This document shows positions 19,155 to 35,318 of a DNA stretch of 35,318 nt, in pieces; position 1 is the stretch's first letter, and the number at the start of each line of letters is the position of its first letter. The position numbers were made by a program, and so were the translations under genes. Source of the DNA: a virus. Under the pieces are notes generated by a model. That model worked only from the letters and a program-made list of their open reading frames with translations. It had not been told where the DNA came from and did not search any database. Location: the IMG/VR virus record IMGVR_UViG_3300009423_000003. One strand, written 5' to 3'.

Positions 19155-20253
19155 AAAATCAGATATAGAATTGCAGAATGGGGAAGATTTGACCGATTTT
19201 TTACAGCGTAATGGTAAAATTACCGATGAAAAGGTAGTCAAGAACGGCACAAGTGTATTGCAGGGTATGGATATATGGGATACTCCAAGCCGAGATGTAG
19301 AGTGGGCGGTTAAGGATATGATTCCGATGCGTAAAAAGACAGTAGCTGTTGGTGATTTCGAGGCAGGGAAGAGCTATTTGTACCTGGGGGCAGCCTTATC
19401 TATTGCAGGAGGGAAGACTGGGTATATCGGATTTGAGATACCAAAGATGCGTAAAGTGTTGTATGTGGATCTAGAGAATGGTATCGATGAAACACTTGGC
19501 AGGATACGGAAGTTAACTGTTGGGCATCAGATTGATAAGTTAAAAGCATCAGATAATCTAACGCTTATTACGAAGCCAGGTGATTTTGAAGAGGTATTTC
19601 CGCTTATAGAGACACAAGTTTTAGTGCAAAAGCCAGATGTGATAATTATAGACAACCTCTATCAGCTTTCTGGCGCAAGTAATATATCGGATGCAGATAA
19701 GATAAAGCCGTTGTTGACTAAGATAGAGAGATTAAAGGAAAAGAGCGATGCTGCGCTAGTGGTGATACATCATTTTAACAAGAATACACAAGACCAGGGG
19801 GTTGCTGAAGAGAGAATGGCAGGGTCAAGTGTGCTTAATTGGTGGTATGAGCATTGTTTGCTTTTGTGTAAGACAAATCAAGACTTTAGTTTACTTGCGA
19901 TAGGCAAGAGTCGTATGGGTTCTAAGAATCCTGGAGTCTATGGTATAGAGATAAACGATCAACCACAAGGTGGTGTAGCGGTAGAGTGCGGTGGCCTGGT
20001 TTCTAGTGATAAGATCAAGGGTCTGGTCATTCCAGAGCCTCGCAAGACAAAGTGGGAGCATCACTTGAGTAGAATGGCGGATGATTTTGAGACATACGAG
20101 TGGTTAAATGTCTGTGGGGATACTCAGGATGACAAAGTGTCTGATGGTACAGCGCATAGGTGGTTAGGGGAGATGGCAGCGGTTGGAATAGTTAAAAAAT
20201 TGTCTCATGGTAGGTATAAAAAGACCAAAATGACCTTTTATGAGACAGATTAG
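19129..20253 (+). CDS. RecA-fold replicative helicase (RepA/DnaB-like) whose N-terminus carries the last TOPRIM motif
   Basis: N-terminus ...DIELQNGEDLTDFLQRNGK. Walker A GDFEAGKSY and Walker B PDVIIIDNL. Frame 1 opens right after TGA 19126-19128. Confidence 0.85.
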   Translation: MSMVMPKFRKSDIELQNGEDLTDFLQRNGKITDEKVVKNGTSVLQGMDIWDTPSRDVEWAVKDMIPMRKKTVAVGDFEAGKSYLYLGAALSIAGGKTGYIGFEIPKMRKVLYVDLENGIDETLGRIRKLTVGHQIDKLKASDNLTLITKPGDFEEVFPLIETQVLVQKPDVIIIDNLYQLSGASNISDADKIKPLLTKIERLKEKSDAALVVIHHFNKNTQDQGVAEERMAGSSVLNWWYEHCLLLCKTNQDFSLLAIGKSRMGSKNPGVYGIEINDQPQGGVAVECGGLVSSDKIKGLVIPEPRKTKWEHHLSRMADDFETYEWLNVCGDTQDDKVSDGTAHRWLGEMAAVGIVKKLSHGRYKKTKMTFYETD

Positions 20254-20449
20254 GCCTGGGGGGAGGGTATGAGAGTTTTGATAGTTTTGATAGTTTCAAG
20301 CCTCCAAACTCTCAATACTCTCAATACTAACGCACCCTCACTCCCTATTTTCTACCTTTTTAGTAGAATTTTTGGGAAAAACCCTCATTCAAACTCACAT
20401 TCAAACTATCATTACCCTTACCCTGTAGATATAAATATAAAAATACCCT
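20254..20449. repeat. Non-coding repeat field (candidate replication origin or regulatory region)
   Basis: Tandem 9-mers AGTTTTGAT x2 plus AGTTTCAAG (20274-20300). CTCAATACT x2 (20311-20328). CATTCAAACT x2 (20386-20407), which are roughly the reverse complement of the first set. Hairpin TTCTAC/GTAGAA. An iteron-like copy lies at 20413-20447. Confidence 0.45.
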
Positions 20450-20794
20450 ATGTCAGATAATATAGAAGACCCTTTAAGCAGTATTATAGATAAGTTAGAT
20501 CTGAAGTTGACTGACCCTTTGTCAGATGATATAAAAGAGTATCTAAGTGATAAGTATCATCATAATCAATGCAACTTAGGTAGGCCAGAGTTAGACTATT
20601 ATTGTATGTTAGCTTATAAAGATGAGAACGATAAGCTACTATGTGGTGCTATCTTAAATTGGTCAAAACATCTTCAGGTAGAGGGGCTGCGTAAGTGCTT
20701 CTTGCTTATGAAGTATGAGCATAAGTTGGCTGAAGCGAATCGTAGGCGCAAGGGTAACTTTACAGGTCCTAAACACAAGAAGCTTAATAGATAG
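20450..20794 (+). CDS. Hypothetical protein
   Basis: ORF track. No clear SD. Confidence 0.45.
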   Translation: MSDNIEDPLSSIIDKLDLKLTDPLSDDIKEYLSDKYHHNQCNLGRPELDYYCMLAYKDENDKLLCGAILNWSKHLQVEGLRKCFLLMKYEHKLAEANRRRKGNFTGPKHKKLNR

Positions 20795-20822
20795 TTACCC
20801 TTTCGATCTTATTATAAGATTT

Positions 20823-20975
20823 CTAAGCCTCACTCTCTTTTACAATATCCATATAGCAACCTGGAATATCATCGATACTAATTTTATTATTTTCCAAGTC
20901 TCCAATAATATTGTAAATATTCAAAGCTTCTTGCTCTAAAGCTTCTATGATTTTTGTTTTTTCGTTTATTATCAT
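20823..20975 (-). CDS. 50-aa hypothetical protein, not in the ORF track (MIINEKTKIIEALEQEALNIYNIIGDLENNKISIDDIPGCYMDIVKESEA)
   Basis: Translated by hand from the reverse complement. ATGA overlap with the stop of 20972..21193. Confidence 0.45.
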   Translation of the reverse strand: MIINEKTKIIEALEQEALNIYNIIGDLENNKISIDDIPGCYMDIVKESEA

Positions 20976-21193
20976 AGCTGCACCTCGCTTTCTTTTATTA
21001 ACTCAACTCGTTCGTTGTCGTATAAAGTCCAATCCACTTGATCACTACCCTCATCGCATTTATCCCAGGCGCTTATGCCTTTCATTACAGCCGAATTTTC
21101 AATATAATAACATCTACCCTTTATAGTGATATATAAAGAATCTTCTGATGTTATATTGACAATTACCCCCCTATGTTTTATTGTTTTACTCAT
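20972..21193 (-). CDS. Hypothetical 73-aa protein
   Basis: ORF track. SD context AACGAAAGGGTAATAAAATG. Confidence 0.6.
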   Translation of the reverse strand: MSKTIKHRGVIVNITSEDSLYITIKGRCYYIENSAVMKGISAWDKCDEGSDQVDWTLYDNERVELIKESEVQL

Positions 21194-21194
21194 T

Positions 21195-21326
21195 TTATTA
21201 CCCTTTCGTTATTAATATAAAAATCAATTATTACCCTTTATAGAATAATATAAAAATCAATTATTACCCTTTGTAGAATAATATAAAAATCAATTATTAC
21301 CCTTTGTAGAATAATATAAAAAATTA
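21195..21326. repeat. Four tandem 33-bp direct repeats (iteron-like)
   Basis: Units start at 21195, 21228, 21261 and 21294, with an exact 33-bp period. Consensus on the plus strand is TTATTACCCTTTGTAGAATAATATAAAAATCAA. The first unit is degenerate and the last is truncated at the stop of the upstream ORF. Confidence 0.9.
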
Positions 21327-21470
21327 AACCTGGTTTTGGTTAATTTTAACTTTTGAACGTCTTTTAATTTCGTTCTCGCATTGCCTTCTAAATGATATAG
21401 AATATTTTTTAATACCATATATGACAATTACAAGTTGTAAGCCGTTAAGCTGCGCAACGGTTTTATTCAT
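21324..21470 (-). CDS. 48-aa basic hypothetical protein, not in the ORF track (MNKTVAQLNGLQLVIVIYGIKKYSISFRRQCENEIKRRSKVKINQNQV)
   Basis: Translated by hand. SD AAAGAGGTTGATTTATG. Confidence 0.4.
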   Translation of the reverse strand: MNKTVAQLNGLQLVIVIYGIKKYSISFRRQCENEIKRRSKVKINQNQV

Positions 21471-21564
21471 AAATCAACCTCTTTAAATGTTAAAAAATAT
21501 TAACATAAAAATCCATACGCTCATGATAAATACAAGCGTAATAAATTCTTTAAATAATCTAAAT

Positions 21565-21786
21565 TTATTCATTTTCTAACCTGTTATTTAATGGATTAAA
21601 ATATTTGACTGTCTTCAGTATTTGCGACCAATTCGCTCCACTTTTAGCGCTTATTTTATAACGGCCGTCACTTTGCTTAGATACTTTAAAGTCGCTTAAT
21701 TTTTGTCCAAAAAAACGCATTGTATCATCGCTAAAAAAATAAGGTGCTGTTTTAAGTGTTCTCTCTTTTATTTCTTGTATAGTCAT
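21565..21786 (-). CDS. Hypothetical 73-aa protein
   Basis: ORF track. Its start context is supplied by conserved element copy 1. Confidence 0.6.
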   Translation of the reverse strand: MTIQEIKERTLKTAPYFFSDDTMRFFGQKLSDFKVSKQSDGRYKISAKSGANWSQILKTVKYFNPLNNRLENE

Positions 21787-21868
21787 TTTTAGATTCCTTT
21801 CGTTTTAACCTAAGACACTTCAACAGATCCGTTGAAGTGTTTCGTTCTTCTAAACTCTTTAGTTAGGG
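21784..21868 (-). promoter_or_regulatory. Conserved structured intergenic element, copy 1 (putative cis-regulatory RNA or processing site)
   Basis: The flanks are nearly identical to 22658..22740. 10-bp stem 21815-21824/21831-21840, a small 4-bp hairpin at 21844-21855 and closing CCTAA/TTAGG pairs. It ends in the SD and ATG of gene 21786<-21565. Confidence 0.7.
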
Positions 21869-21869
21869 T

Positions 21870-22472
21870 TTAATGAATTATAAGACCTACATTTTTCGTT
21901 GAATTATACCACCTGGTTGCATATAAATCGAATTCTGAGCTGTCCGTATAATTAGCTTTTTTCAATGCCTCAAGGCTCTCAAATATTTTTGCGTGCCTGT
22001 CCGTTTTTTGGTCAACGAATTTATTTTGCTTACCACTATCCGAAAATATAAAATCAAAATTAATTGGAATTGATTTTAAATTCTTAATCATGGTTATGTT
22101 ATTAGTGTAGGAATAGAATTTAACATCAGGATTATCTTGAGCAATTTGAAACCATTTTAAAAGATATTGTTTGCTGTAATAGTCGCCTGAATCGTGCACC
22201 CTGATATATTCGGCCTTCTTGTCTTTTATATCCTTATTCATAGCCTCAACAAAGTCATTTTTTAAAGTGGCTTTAAGTTTTAATTCCATCCACTTAGACG
22301 CCATTTTGTACATACCTTTTTGAGCATAACAAAATTTAATACAGGCGTCCGCCATTGGACAAGTTACCATACCACTTTTAGATTTATAGGCAGGAATTGA
22401 AAAATTATACAGGCGTACATTAAAATGTTTACCTGTCTTTTTTATCTTGCTGTTTTGTGTCAATAAGTTCAT
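21870..22472 (-). CDS. GP88-like domain protein (Cys cluster CPMADACIKFCYA, HDSGD motif), function unknown
   Basis: The pattern TCP...C...CYA ... vHDSGDyys ... FYsYT matches my recollection of the phage gene-product-88 family. Confidence 0.6.
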   Translation of the reverse strand: MNLLTQNSKIKKTGKHFNVRLYNFSIPAYKSKSGMVTCPMADACIKFCYAQKGMYKMASKWMELKLKATLKNDFVEAMNKDIKDKKAEYIRVHDSGDYYSKQYLLKWFQIAQDNPDVKFYSYTNNITMIKNLKSIPINFDFIFSDSGKQNKFVDQKTDRHAKIFESLEALKKANYTDSSEFDLYATRWYNSTKNVGLIIH

Positions 22473-22660
22473 TATTTACCTCTCTTTTCAAATGACAACT
22501 CAGAGCGCAGCTTACACGCTTCTAATATAGCGCTAACATCCTCTAATATACTTTCGTCTGTGTAGTCATTGCCCGTTGCATAAATTTCAGATGTTAAAAA
22601 TTCCTCAATTAATTGTAGCGAGTGGTATTGTTCATGTGTTATGGTAATTGATTTATTCAT
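22472..22660 (-). CDS. Small acidic protein (paralog of 22735..22932)
   Basis: ITHEQYHSLQLIEEFLTSEIYATG aligns without gaps to ISKKECNALAEIRDHINGCIYENG in the neighbouring gene. Confidence 0.6.
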   Translation of the reverse strand: MNKSITITHEQYHSLQLIEEFLTSEIYATGNDYTDESILEDVSAILEACKLRSELSFEKRGK

Positions 22661-22740
22661 TTTAGATTTCCTTTCGTTTTAACCTAAGACCCTCTACAGA
22701 TCTGTAGAGGGTTTCGTTCTTTCGAACTCTTCAGTTAGGA
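22658..22740 (-). promoter_or_regulatory. Conserved structured intergenic element, copy 2
   Basis: Perfect 24-bp palindrome 22689-22712 (ACCCTCTACAGATCTGTAGAGGGT), GTTC-GAAA-GAAC hairpin and the same flanks as copy 1. Its 5' (sense) end overlaps the stop codon of 22735..22932. Confidence 0.7.
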
Positions 22741-22932
22741 TTTTTTAACTTCAATCCATTTTTTAATTAAGCCGTTTAAAGTTTCCGAAAGCTCATAGTC
22801 ATCAAATTCTATTTGGCCTGCCTCTTTCATTTCGTCTTCAAATCCATTCTCATAAATACAGCCGTTAATATGGTCTCTAATTTCGGCTAAAGCGTTACAT
22901 TCTTTTTTGCTAATTTTAATTTTTCTACTCAT
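22735..22932 (-). CDS. Small acidic protein (paralog of 22472..22660)
   Basis: ORF track. Its ATG lies 2 nt downstream of the stop of the upstream gene (22934..23407). Confidence 0.6.
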   Translation of the reverse strand: MSRKIKISKKECNALAEIRDHINGCIYENGFEDEMKEAGQIEFDDYELSETLNGLIKKWIEVKKS

Positions 22933-22933
22933 T

Positions 22934-23407
22934 TTAATTTCTTTCCTTTATTTTTTTAATTAGTTTATAATCATCATCCTCAAAAACTATATGCTCTTCA
23001 ATCTTATGAATTAGAAAATATTCAGTAGGTAATTGATTCTTTTTATTAACTTCTGTCCAATATTCTCTTTCAAGCTTTAAAGACTTTTTAGTTCTTTTAA
23101 ATGGATTTTCTTTAGTCTTTAATCCATAAGCCGTTAGCGTGTATTTACCGTCCTTATTTTTTTTAATTCTAGGCTTATCGCATTTATAACTTGATGCCCC
23201 AAACTTTAATAGAACTAAATTAGTATTTCCGTAACCTTGATAGTCTGTTCTAGTCCTCCACTTATCATTCTTAAATTCTTTAGTGATTTCATAAAACCCT
23301 TTATTGTTAAGCTTAACAGATTTTAAAAGCCTATTCATATCTGAATATTTTAACGGCTCTTTCTCTAGCCAATTCATTAAAAAAGTATATTTATTTTTAT
23401 GTTTCAT
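22934..23407 (-). CDS. Hypothetical basic 157-aa protein, first gene of the minus-strand island
   Basis: The start was moved to Met16 of the track ORF (MKHKNKY...). It has a strong SD (AGAAGGAAATACTATG) and lies downstream of the predicted promoter. Confidence 0.55.
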   Translation of the reverse strand: MKHKNKYTFLMNWLEKEPLKYSDMNRLLKSVKLNNKGFYEITKEFKNDKWRTRTDYQGYGNTNLVLLKFGASSYKCDKPRIKKNKDGKYTLTAYGLKTKENPFKRTKKSLKLEREYWTEVNKKNQLPTEYFLIHKIEEHIVFEDDDYKLIKKIKERN

Positions 23408-23443
23408 AGTATTTCCTTCTATTTGTTTGCTTGTCATGGTTAT

Positions 23444-23472
23444 ATAATACACAATAATTATATTAAATGCAA
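23444..23472 (-). promoter_or_regulatory. Sigma70-type promoter candidate for the minus-strand island (TTGCAT-17 nt-TATTAT)
   Basis: In minus sense, the -35 TTGCAT is the complement of 23467-23472. A 17-nt spacer follows, and the -10 TATTAT is the complement of 23444-23449. Confidence 0.45.
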
Positions 23473-23701
23473 TACTTTATATTACATTAACTATCAATAA
23501 CACCTTATATATATATATTTTTTGAGTGCGTCCAATCAAACACACTAAGCCGAGAAAAGCTATTTACGATTTTTACGATTGAATTTGCGTATTATCTACC
23601 GATTATATATTTTTGCCTCAATGGTATGCGAACAAATGAATCTATTTAAATCAAAACCTGGTTTTTTATCGTGAATAAAGCCGAGCCACAAGGACAGTTT
23701 T

Positions 23702-23730
23702 TTGCTTGCGACATACATCGCGTCTAAAAT
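23702..23730 (+). promoter_or_regulatory. Sigma70-type promoter candidate for the packaging/structural operon (TTGCTT-17 nt-TAAAAT)
   Basis: -35 at 23702-23707, a 17-nt spacer and -10 at 23725-23730. It has the same architecture as the promoter at 12541. Confidence 0.5.
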
Positions 23731-23767
23731 TTTTTTTTATTTTTAAGCACCAACATATGTTACAATA

Positions 23768-24079
23768 ATGGACTGGCCAATAATCACCGAAGCTGACTAC
23801 GAAAGACTCATCGAATCCATCGATCTCGGTGACGAGTTCTTTCGCAAACTAGCGATCTTCCGCTCTGGACTCATCGAGCCACATATGAGGCATTGGCAAC
23901 TCTCGGCTCACGAGGCCTACGATAAACTATCTGAGCGTGAACTTCAGGTCTTCAAGATGCGCTTAAAATCACACAGCTTCCCACTCATAGCAGAAAACCT
24001 GGAAATATCTGAATCATCAGCTAAAACCTACTGGCGCAGAGCCATACGCAAGTGTTGGGTTCTATTTGATGTAGTCTAA
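23768..24079 (+). CDS. Sigma-70 region-4 / LuxR-like HTH protein (candidate late regulator)
   Basis: LSERELQVFKMRLKSHSFPLIAENLEISESSAKTYWRRAIRK resembles ECF sigma region 4.2. Confidence 0.6.
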   Translation: MDWPIITEADYERLIESIDLGDEFFRKLAIFRSGLIEPHMRHWQLSAHEAYDKLSERELQVFKMRLKSHSFPLIAENLEISESSAKTYWRRAIRKCWVLFDVV

Positions 24080-24110
24080 TCTGTAGTTTTTGAAAGACTA
24101 TAGGAATCTT

Positions 24111-24509
24111 ATGGACAAAAAGAAAAAACTAGGCAGACCCAAGCTAAACATCGATGCTGAAAAAGTAGAGATGCTCTCAAGCTTTGGTTGTTCTACGGTA
24201 GAAATAGCAAAGCTTCATAATTGCGATGAGCAAACCATTCGCACACGCTTCAAGCCAGAGATACAACGCGGTAGAGAAAGCATGAAGATCAAGCTACGTC
24301 AGCTTCAATGGAAGACTGCCGAGCAAGGCTCAAACGCAATGTTGATATTTTTAGGGAAACAATATTTAGGTCAAAGTGATCGTAATGAACTAGAACTAGT
24401 AGGCAATCTTGAGGGATTACTCAAAGAGTGTGGCTACGAAGATTCACCCATTGAAAAGAAAAGTATTAAACAAACAGAAGCTCTGGAAAGCCCTAGAATA
24501 CTCGCCTAG
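24111..24509 (+). CDS. terS: Terminase small subunit
   Basis: N-terminal HTH (KLGRPKLNIDAEKVEMLSSFGCSTVEIAKLHNCDEQTIRTRF) and LIFLGKQYLGQSD. It lies directly upstream of TerL. The start was set to ATG 24111, which has the SD AGGAA. Confidence 0.65.
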   Translation: MDKKKKLGRPKLNIDAEKVEMLSSFGCSTVEIAKLHNCDEQTIRTRFKPEIQRGRESMKIKLRQLQWKTAEQGSNAMLIFLGKQYLGQSDRNELELVGNLEGLLKECGYEDSPIEKKSIKQTEALESPRILA

Positions 24510-25749
24510 CCCTAATCAACTTTCCGTACATAATTCGACAGCACGCTTTCGAGTGAACGTACAGGGAAGAAGGTCAGGCAAAAGCTATAGTGCTGCTAAA
24601 GAAATCTTGCCCTACATCCTTACTCCGAATACGAGAACCTGGATAGTTGGCCCAACGCTTGATTTAGCAGACAAGATTATGCGAGAGGTCAAGATAGACA
24701 TCATCACAAAGCTCAGACTTCCGATCGCATACAAGAAAGAGATTAGCGGTGCAGTACACTATATGAAGCTAGCTGGTCTAAACAGCGAAGTATCGGTCAA
24801 GTCAGCAGACAGACCTGAGTCATTAGTTGGTGATGGCATAGACCACTTAGTAGTAGAAGAAGCAGCAAAGATAAGGAAAATCGTATGGGAGCAGTATCTC
24901 AGACCAACACTAGCCGACAAGCAAGGCTGGGCGCTCTTTACAACAACACCAGAAGGATACAACTGGGTATATGATTTATGGCAACGCGGAAAGTCGGAAG
25001 AATTTCCAGACTGGGATTCCTGGCAACACCCAAGCTGGGAGTCTCCATTTTTCAAAGATGACATTGAAGAGCTAAAGAAGACACTTACATATGAAACATG
25101 GCAACAAGAGTTCGGAGCGCAATTCACCAGCTTTTCAGGGAGGGTTTTTCCGTTTGATCGCACCATACACATCCAAAAACTCAAGTATAACCCAGATCTT
25201 CCAACCTATGTGGGTATCGACTTTGGATACCGCACAAGTGCAGCAGGATTTTTTCAAGTCGAACAACATCCAAGTAAAGATAAAATTTATCTCATAGATG
25301 AAGTGTGGGAAGAGAATATCAAGACCGAAGACTTTGCAGATAAGATTAAAGCAAAAAGATACCCTATTATCCGTTATTTCGGTGATCCAGCAGGAGGAGG
25401 AGTACAAGCGCAGAGTGGAATTGGAGACATAGAGATTTTTAGGAAGAAAGGCATTAACGTTGAATACAGAAGAGATAAGGTCTCACGCAACATTCCAAAC
25501 GGTATTAGTCATATGCGTACTTGGTTTGAGGATGCTTCTGGAAATACCCATTTTTACGCAGACTCCAGAGCAGAAAAGTTTATATCTAGCTTTGAGAACT
25601 ACCGCTATCCAGAGAAGAAGAAAGACCAAAGACTTAAAGAAGAACCTCTAAAAGATGGACTCAATGATCACGCCTGTGATGCCAGTAGATATTTCTGGTG
25701 TAATCTTTTTCCAATTAAAAGTAGAACCGCAGGAACGGTAGATTGGTAA
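24409..25749 (+). CDS. terL: Terminase large subunit
   Basis: Walker A VQGRRSGKSY and Walker B DHLVVEEAA. Nuclease acidic motifs GIDFGY and NDHACDASRY. The start is uncertain (TTG 24409 or TTG 24451). Confidence 0.92.
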   Translation: MRDYSKSVATKIHPLKRKVLNKQKLWKALEYSPSPNQLSVHNSTARFRVNVQGRRSGKSYSAAKEILPYILTPNTRTWIVGPTLDLADKIMREVKIDIITKLRLPIAYKKEISGAVHYMKLAGLNSEVSVKSADRPESLVGDGIDHLVVEEAAKIRKIVWEQYLRPTLADKQGWALFTTTPEGYNWVYDLWQRGKSEEFPDWDSWQHPSWESPFFKDDIEELKKTLTYETWQQEFGAQFTSFSGRVFPFDRTIHIQKLKYNPDLPTYVGIDFGYRTSAAGFFQVEQHPSKDKIYLIDEVWEENIKTEDFADKIKAKRYPIIRYFGDPAGGGVQAQSGIGDIEIFRKKGINVEYRRDKVSRNIPNGISHMRTWFEDASGNTHFYADSRAEKFISSFENYRYPEKKKDQRLKEEPLKDGLNDHACDASRYFWCNLFPIKSRTAGTVDW

Positions 25750-35171: not shown

Positions 35172-35318
35172 AATAGCATTTGTAATTACAGCTTGGGTGT
35201 TTATTCTTTCTTGCGCTCCTAATGTTATGGGCAATAGAATATTAGACAACAAAGATATTTCTCATGTTTACTTAATAGACGAGATTTATAACGGAAAAAG
35301 TTATTGGTGCATAAAACA
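35158..35318 (+). CDS. 5' part of the 72-aa lipobox-containing protein (continues at base 124 of the circularised genome, ends at 181)
   Basis: SD tAGGAtcaacaATG. Signal-like MVVIRIAFVITAWVFILSC with lipobox-like ILSC. It runs off the window end inside the terminal repeat. Confidence 0.5.
   Translation, partial: MVVIRIAFVITAWVFILSCAPNVMGNRILDNKDISHVYLIDEIYNGKSYWCIK
35196..35318. repeat. Terminal direct repeat, copy B (exact duplicate of 1..123)
   Basis: Same 123 nt as the window start. It lies inside an ORF, which fits a circular-assembly overlap or terminal redundancy. Confidence 0.95.

Follow-up and report, generated by a model that had tools for sequence, protein, structure and literature searches.

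The two repeated intergenic elements described here are very probably type I hammerhead ribozymes of the minus strand, through which the transcript of a leftward phage operon would cleave itself between genes, and the downstream one (copy B) is probably crippled. Neither the ribozyme class nor the arrangement is new, as hammerheads on either side of phage genes have been on record since 2011 (PMC3088659); the two elements add unannotated members to the class. What is known of the hammerhead class is unchanged by these findings.

The window, which is the whole stretch of 35,318 nucleotides that was analysed, represents a complete phage genome, about 35.2 kb long, with 37% G+C and an exact terminal redundancy of 123 nt. 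A DNA search with positions 20000-25000 gave 0 matches to GenBank phages, protein searches with the terminase and GP88 found only distant cultured relatives with at most 34% identity, and a scan of the window for tRNA and tmRNA genes found none. Both elements lie between cistrons, and the first-pass annotation was right that they bracket exactly two open reading frames, the second of which encodes a GP88-family protein (Table 1). The terminator-like hairpin after the DUF7447-like gene is likely the end of the operon, which places both ribozymes within one leftward operon of about 2 kb. Searches of PADLOC and of PDB sequences with the ribozyme-flanked proteins found nothing.

Table 1. Coordinates of the operon, its genes and the parts of the two ribozymes in the window (SD, Shine-Dalgarno sequence)
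Feature	Position	Strand	Evidence or detail
Leftward operon with both ribozymes	~23452 to ~21516	-	172-aa gene, 65-aa gene, ribozyme A, 62-aa gene, GP88, ribozyme B, DUF7447-like gene, terminator-like hairpin
65-aa ORF, upstream of ribozyme A	22735..22932	-	Stop UAA 22737-22735 within stem I of A
Ribozyme A, type I, consensus core	22683..22739	-	Rfam, models R1/R2, MFE fold
A stem I 5' strand CCUAA	22739-22735	-	
A core C3-A9 CUGAAGA	22734-22728	-	
A stem II GUUC-GAAA-GAAC	22727-22716	-	
A G12-A14	22715-22713	-	
A stem III, 10 bp, loop GAUC	22712-22689	-	
A C17	22688	-	
A stem I 3' strand UUAGG	22687-22683	-	
27-nt leader left by predicted A cleavage	22661..22687	-	5'-OH-UUAGGUUAAAACGAAAGGAAAUCUAAA; SD AAGGA 22673-22669; AUG 22660-22658
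62-aa acidic ORF, first gene between ribozymes	22472..22660	-	Without family match
GP88-family gene, 200 aa, second gene between ribozymes	21870..22472	-	Pfam PF17338, E 8.2e-32
Ribozyme B, type I core variant	21809..21867	-	Models R1/R2
B stem I 5' strand CCUAA	21867-21863	-	
B core CUAAAGA, A for G5 at 21860	21862-21856	-	
B stem II GUUU-AGAA-GAAC, one U.G	21855-21844	-	
B GAA	21843-21841	-	
B stem III, 11 bp, one of them G.U	21840-21815	-	
B C17	21814	-	
B stem I 3' strand UUAGG	21813-21809	-	
27-nt leader downstream of B	21787..21813	-	SD AAGGA 21799-21795; AUG 21786-21784
DUF7447-like gene, 73 aa, downstream of ribozyme B	21565..21786	-	Pfam PF24239, E 2.6e-5
Terminator-like hairpin and U tract after the DUF7447-like gene	21516..21540	-	Consensus scan only

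In the minus sense, the elements form two direct repeats of about 85 nt (A, 22742..22658; B, 21870..21784). These had been reported in the first-pass annotation and are real: the window contains precisely two copies of the 3' flank CTTAGGTTAAAACGAAAGGAA (21 nt) and two of the 29-nt 5' flank, all on the minus strand, and no such flank repeats are expected by chance (100 shuffles). A repeat search returned the two halves of the elements as families D15 and D18, with 85% and 83% identity, and in a pairwise alignment the flanks of A and B are about 95% identical. The central stem is compensated, as had been claimed. Five of the 10 positions have changed between ACACTTCAAC and ACCCTCTACA while the arms of both are complementary, which gives a perfect stem of 10 bp in A and of 11 bp including one G.U pair in B. 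Both stems carry a GAUC loop, and the earlier emphasis on this loop holds for the two window copies but not for the family, since GATC is absent from most relatives. With no conservation in the family to support it, the loop sequence was not taken as meaningful.

Read in the mRNA sense, each element consists of CCUAA, CUGANGA, a 4-bp hairpin, GAAA, a variable hairpin closed by A-U and then C-G, UC and UUAGG, with B departing from the CUGANGA core by reading CUAAAGA. This is the order of the parts of a hammerhead. CCUAA and UUAGG form an open stem I, followed by the core nucleotides C3-A9, the small hairpin as stem II, G12-A14 and the variable stem as stem III, which is closed by A15.1-U16.1; the cleavage triplet is GUC, with C17 as the cleavage nucleotide. 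Both copies read CGAAAC...GUC, and these columns do not vary in alignments A2 and A3. The three-way junction closed by CCUAA/UUAGG and ending just before the Shine-Dalgarno sequence, which had been drawn from the letters, is exactly the hammerhead junction and the MFE fold of each isolated element (57 nt for A, 59 nt for B). The suggestion of a new RNA motif therefore falls, because the hammerhead core and stem I, with CUGANGA, GAAA and a GUC that runs into UUAGG, make up the invariant flanks. A related proposal, that the elements are processing sites, is plausible as far as the site is concerned, but the agent would be the predicted self-cleavage and not RNase III or RNase E. It had also been stated correctly that the elements are not terminators in the sense direction: no U tract follows the stems, the sense strand continuing as CUUAGGUUAAAAC, so that the G+C-rich hairpin with a U tract of an intrinsic terminator is not found there.

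Standard annotation with Rfam at gathering thresholds gave no match in the window and misses both ribozymes. At an E-value threshold, copy A matched RF03152 (RAGATH-1-hammerhead) with 38.7 bits and an E-value of 1.7e-4 (cut-off 56.3), and RF00163 (Hammerhead_1) with 21 bits and an E-value of 0.053 (cut-off 34). A gathering cut-off is set by curators and does not describe structure. Copy B had no Rfam match at E-values up to 10, and no further ribozyme class was found in the whole window at the E-value threshold. With the models built for this family, copy A scores 58.8 bits with model R1 and 53.7 bits (E 3.4e-11) with R2, a covariance model from which the window and its closest relatives were excluded, and copy B scores 51.9 bits with R1 and 43.3 bits (E 1.3e-8) with R2. 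Since R2 has no other match in the window at E-values up to 1, the window contains exactly two hammerheads. Fast cleavage at the Mg2+ levels of cells usually requires, in natural hammerheads, that stem I makes a tertiary contact with loop II. Stem I stops at 5-6 bp in this family (5 bp in both window copies), and by reading the sequences no obvious pseudoknot partner of loop II or tertiary contact between stem I and loop II was seen.

A hammerhead pattern in which stem I is fixed as CCUAA/UUAGG was searched in the window and in 39 IMG/VR contigs of uncultivated viruses, and it yielded 47 instances, 38 of them unique. Each variable position of stem II shows at least four pair types, and stem III has 4 to 14 consecutive pairs (simple stem count) with many different sequences. 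In the aligned subset, stems II and III are paired in 99.8% of cells. The covariation score is 0.526 compared with 0.098 in shuffles, none of 500 shuffles reaches the observed value, and pairing falls to 29-47% when the partners are shifted by 1-3 columns. Changes on both sides were found in 6 of the 14 pairs of the whole structure, namely 3 of 4 in stem II and 3 of the 5 scored in stem III. Stem I itself covaries in relatives found with the model, with GACAUA/UAUGUC in one contig (L024) and CCUAU/AUAGG in another (L060).

The strand of the functional molecule can be read from the wobble pairs. The 4-bp hairpin, reported earlier as differing between the copies, is indeed GUUC-GAAA-GAAC in A and GUUU-AGAA-GAAC in B, where the last pair is a U.G that is possible only in minus-sense RNA. 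Across the family, 41 G.U pairs would read as A.C mismatches in RNA of the other strand, and the functional molecule is therefore the gene-sense RNA, in agreement with the earlier proposal of an RNA acting on the gene strand. An upstream stop codon is at most 11 nt away or overlapped in all 48 distinct instances, the UAA within stem I is the stop of the upstream ORF in 28 of the 48, copy A included, and an ATG that opens an ORF follows the cleavage site by 24-67 nt in 41 of the 48.

Copy B differs from the consensus by an A in place of G5 (G5A), and it is alone in this among the 47 pattern instances. A metagenome scan for G5A variants with the same stem I gave 0 matches, and a scan of species-representative genomes returned one unrelated MAG. 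In the closely related contig L045, the ortholog of B has an intact CUGAAGA core, stem II GUUC-AAAA-GAAC and the triplet GUA (still H17), so the G5A change of the window is recent. In work by Ruffner et al. in 1990, substitutions of G5 reportedly slowed cleavage by two to three orders of magnitude. Copy B is classed as a core variant of hammerhead origin, and most likely it has lost all or nearly all of its cleavage activity. If it were active, its predicted cleavage position would lie between 21814 and 21813; if it is inactive, the 62-aa, GP88 and DUF7447-like genes would stay on one RNA in this phage. G5 contacts A15.1 (PMC3088659), and Perreault et al. rejected candidates with deviant cores unless their activity was measured (PMC3088659).

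The comparison with relatives shows how these elements are distributed over genes. L045 is a contig of 34,953 bp whose proteins are mostly 98-100% identical to those of the window. At the DNA level the two are about 95-100% identical, except from ~22935 to ~21980, where the identity is 50-85%; this divergent block starts at the start of the 65-aa gene and ends inside GP88, and is not bounded by the ribozymes. The 62-aa ORF is only 55% identical to its counterpart in L045. The two copies belong to separate stem III lineages, with A-type stems in L045 and B-type stems in both L045 and L046. In two contigs with a GP88 82% identical to that of the window (L041, L042), the same GP88|DUF7447 junction keeps a similar leader but cleanly lacks the ribozyme, and at other GP88 loci the junction holds either a ribosome-binding site only or a classical terminator. 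The gene order can also differ: L046 has GP88, a ribozyme, a homolog of the 65-aa protein and a B-type ribozyme, a permutation of the order in the window. Two identical hammerheads bracket GP88 alone in L010, and a different 70-aa gene is bracketed in L001. Copies within one genome share identical flanks of 23-30 nt, and in L010 and L033 the whole ribozymes are identical.

GP88 was considered as a general hammerhead-associated gene and rejected. Among 80 listed IMG/VR loci with GP88 orthologs of 54-89% identity, only 6 have a hammerhead within 2.5 kb (model R1), and 20 further loci contain no ribozyme according to Rfam. The association between hammerheads and GP88 is limited to one clade.

A rival explanation is that these modules act primarily as DNA. 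Stem-loop modules that flank small variable genes in the plastic early region of T4-type phages were reportedly described as promoter-early stem-loop (PeSL) cassettes by Arbiol et al. in 2010. In the same manner, the flanks of the window elements could be homology patches by which small genes are inserted, deleted or permuted in a hypervariable early region, with any RNA activity being secondary. The repeated intergenic stem-loop modules and the differing gene content between them resemble the T4 case, and the identical flanks and ribozymes within genomes, the clean absence of the ribozyme in L041 and L042, the permuted order in L046, the differing bracketed genes in L010 and L001 and the diverged stretch from 22935 to 21980 in a comparison that is otherwise about 95-99% identical would all fit. 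As the main explanation it is nevertheless unlikely. Covariation, G.U pairs that fit one strand and an invariant core indicate selection on RNA and not on DNA homology only; the conserved parts are the ribozyme core, with selection on RNA pairing. The block that diverges from L045 does not begin and end at ribozymes, and mosaic gene borders are common in phages without any special element. The specific analogy with T4-type promoter/stem-loop cassettes, drawn in the first-pass annotation, fails at the promoter: a PeSL element contains an early sigma-70 promoter, and a scan of 21784-21870 and 22658-22742 revealed no promoter-like site within the elements. Its broader idea of a cassette boundary finds indirect support in the clean presence or absence of the ribozyme and in the permuted gene order, but the bracketed pair is not a conserved unit and the divergent block is not ribozyme-bounded. 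A role as a cassette boundary could be additional to the hammerhead activity rather than an alternative to it.

The elements would be extremely improbable as a functionless recent local duplication: the near identity of the A and B flanks is what such a duplication would leave, but each copy has its own ortholog lineage (A-type in L045, B-type in L045 and L046), and compensatory change keeps stems II and III paired across the 38 unique sequences. The same two observations contradict the possibility, named in the first-pass annotation, that the repeats are merely recent and local. Intrinsic terminators on the plus strand, which would block read-through from the converging replication genes into the leftward operon, are suggested by the scan, which flagged both copies as terminator-like in this direction, with a 12-bp stem followed by TTTCGTTCTT (in the antisense, the stems are followed by UUUCGUUCUU), and by plus-strand genes that end at 20794 and face the leftward block. 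This explanation is highly improbable, given that the conserved GAAAC, which reads GUUUC on the other strand, and stem II produce the T-rich tail, so that any reversed hammerhead resembles a terminator, that the tract is broken by C and G, that the 41 G.U pairs of the family become A.C mismatches, and that the invariant core and stem I would have no role. An equally small chance is given to the leading idea of the first-pass annotation, a new protein-dependent processing or regulatory motif for example a palindrome around GATC that acts like an operator, or a cleavage site of RNase III or RNase E. Long, perfect palindromes centred on GATC in both window copies and the location of the elements directly upstream of ribosome-binding sites speak for it. 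Against it, the hammerhead core accounts for all conserved single-stranded nucleotides, GATC and the stem sequence vary across the family, at 7-14 bp the stems would be short substrates for RNase III, and no unexplained remainder calls for a new motif.

The hammerhead reading places the elements close to systems that are already known. In prophages, multiple hammerheads flank single genes or short gene blocks (PMC3088659; PMC6155905; PMC6765202). Among clustered phage hammerheads, three arrays were shown to cleave in vitro and one in vivo, and the processing of long phage transcripts was proposed as their function (PMC3088659). The type I hammerheads of phages and prophages (RF00163; Perreault et al. 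2011, PMC3088659) have the same core, three-helix junction, open stem I and GUC triplet as the window copies, as well as the same habit of lying close together around genes of unknown function. Natural core variants with reduced activity occur there too, G5A not being among the variants listed (PMC3088659). Compared to RF00163, the window copies have a long stem III, and the stem I of the model differs. A stem I of CCUAA/UUAGG in which UAA often is the upstream stop codon is characteristic of this subfamily, and this detail was not found in the hammerhead literature examined. RAGATH-1 (RF03152) is similar in its type I topology, its stem I (ucuua/uaaga in the model), its long stem III and the A-rich linker that precedes stem I. 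However, its consensus structure adds a 5' hairpin and reduces stem II, whereas copy A has a full 4-bp stem II with a tetraloop, and the region of the window that aligns with the 5' hairpin is coding sequence with non-standard pairs. RiboJ is said to be a synthetic ribozyme insulator with an added hairpin that exposes the ribosome-binding site (Lou et al. in 2012). The window elements resemble it in that a hammerhead lies just upstream of a ribosome-binding site and cleavage would give a defined short 5' leader whatever lies upstream; RiboJ is engineered, whereas the window elements are natural and their leader appears unstructured.

The match to hammerheads in sequence and structure, the strand, the covariation and the position between cistrons are shown by the data; we infer that the transcript cleaves itself in vivo and that this affects the fate of the mRNA. 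During transcription, stems I (CCUAA/UUAGG), II and III would fold around the core, and the 2'-OH of C17 would attack the adjacent phosphate, with the predicted cut in copy A falling between 22688 and 22687. Cleavage would leave the upstream mRNA with the stable stem III hairpin and a 2',3'-cyclic phosphate at its 3' end, and the downstream mRNA would carry a 5'-OH on the 27-nt unstructured leader that holds the Shine-Dalgarno sequence. The expected effect would be that the stability and the translation of one cistron no longer depend on those of its neighbour, with the ribozyme serving as intercistronic punctuation or as an insulator. The fate of RNA with a 5'-OH depends on the host; in Bacillus, the 5'-OH product of the glmS ribozyme is reportedly degraded by RNase J1 (Collins et al. 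in 2007). Because reviews have yet to agree on what hammerheads do in bacteria and phages (PMC6765202; PMC6155905), an insulator or stability effect of the phage hammerheads is here something that we infer.

The relatives described above provide a natural experiment on this role, which reviews call open. Useful contrasts are the intact ortholog and the G5A copy in near-identical genomes, the presence of a ribozyme, of nothing or of a terminator at the same junction, and the stop codon within stem I.

A further and very unlikely outcome is that the RNA excised between two active copies is ligated, by a rebuilt ribozyme or by host RtcB, into a circular, gene-sized mRNA in the manner of retrozymes, for example one encoding GP88. 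Since paired hammerheads have stem I in common, the 5'-OH UUAGG of the excised RNA could pair with its own 3' CCUAA and thereby rebuild a hammerhead across the junction. In the window, such a circle could form only if the G5A copy B still cleaves to some extent. It would fit L045 and L010 better, where both flanking copies have intact cores.

The upstream open reading frame terminates at the UAA of stem I (CCUAA) in 28 of the 48 distinct predicted hammerheads found in the window and its relatives (loci L001-L046), including ribozyme A, the copy that follows the 65-aa gene. Because the UAA of stem I is the upstream stop codon, a terminating ribosome would cover both stem I and the core. This arrangement may be the reason for the strong conservation of the CCUAA sequence of stem I, and it could couple translation to hammerhead cleavage.

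At the junction 3' of the GP88 gene, the window carries a hammerhead, whereas the relatives L055, L057-L059 and L063 have a classical terminator consisting of a G+C-rich hairpin and a T tract. This difference suggests that hammerhead and terminator are interchangeable punctuation at this site. Further natural core variants occur in the relatives at L032 and L001, where one hammerhead combines a U10.1.U11.1 mismatch with a UUA cleavage triplet and another has a C3 to U change.

Compared with the nearest relative contig (L045, VTLG01005856.1), the block covering the 65-aa gene, ribozyme A, the 62-aa gene and GP88 shows only 50-85% identity, in contrast to about 95-99% outside it. The block is a patch that has undergone recombination or replacement locally. 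In the GP88-family protein, the three cysteines C38, C44 and C48 are invariant and lie within TCPxADxCxxFCYA; searches of the PDB and for defence systems returned no match for it.

Coordinates of the features discussed (window unless a locus is named)
Feature	Position	Strand	E-value
Stem I with upstream stop codon (ribozyme A)	22735-22739		
Divergent block	~21980-22935		
Counterpart of the block, L045	6829-7900		
GP88-family protein	21870-22472	-	
TTACCCT(T/G)T-N9-TATAA copies	20412-21319	+	
Tandem 33-nt units	21195-21322		
Core variant, L032	10480-10537		
Core variant, L001	4718-4775		
Terminal direct repeat	1-123 and 35196-35318		
103-aa protein, sigma-70 region 4 / LuxR-type helix-turn-helix	23768-24079	+	1.7e-7

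The genes for primase and helicase lie just upstream of an array in which the motif TTACCCT(T/G)T-N9-TATAA occurs in nine copies, with a chance expectation of 0.11, and these include 3.9 tandem units. The array looks like either an iteron/origin array or a tandem promoter array. The exact 123-nt direct repeat at the termini indicates a complete genome that was circularly assembled or is terminally redundant. The helix-turn-helix gene lies just upstream of the terminase genes and is divergent from the ribozyme-containing operon.
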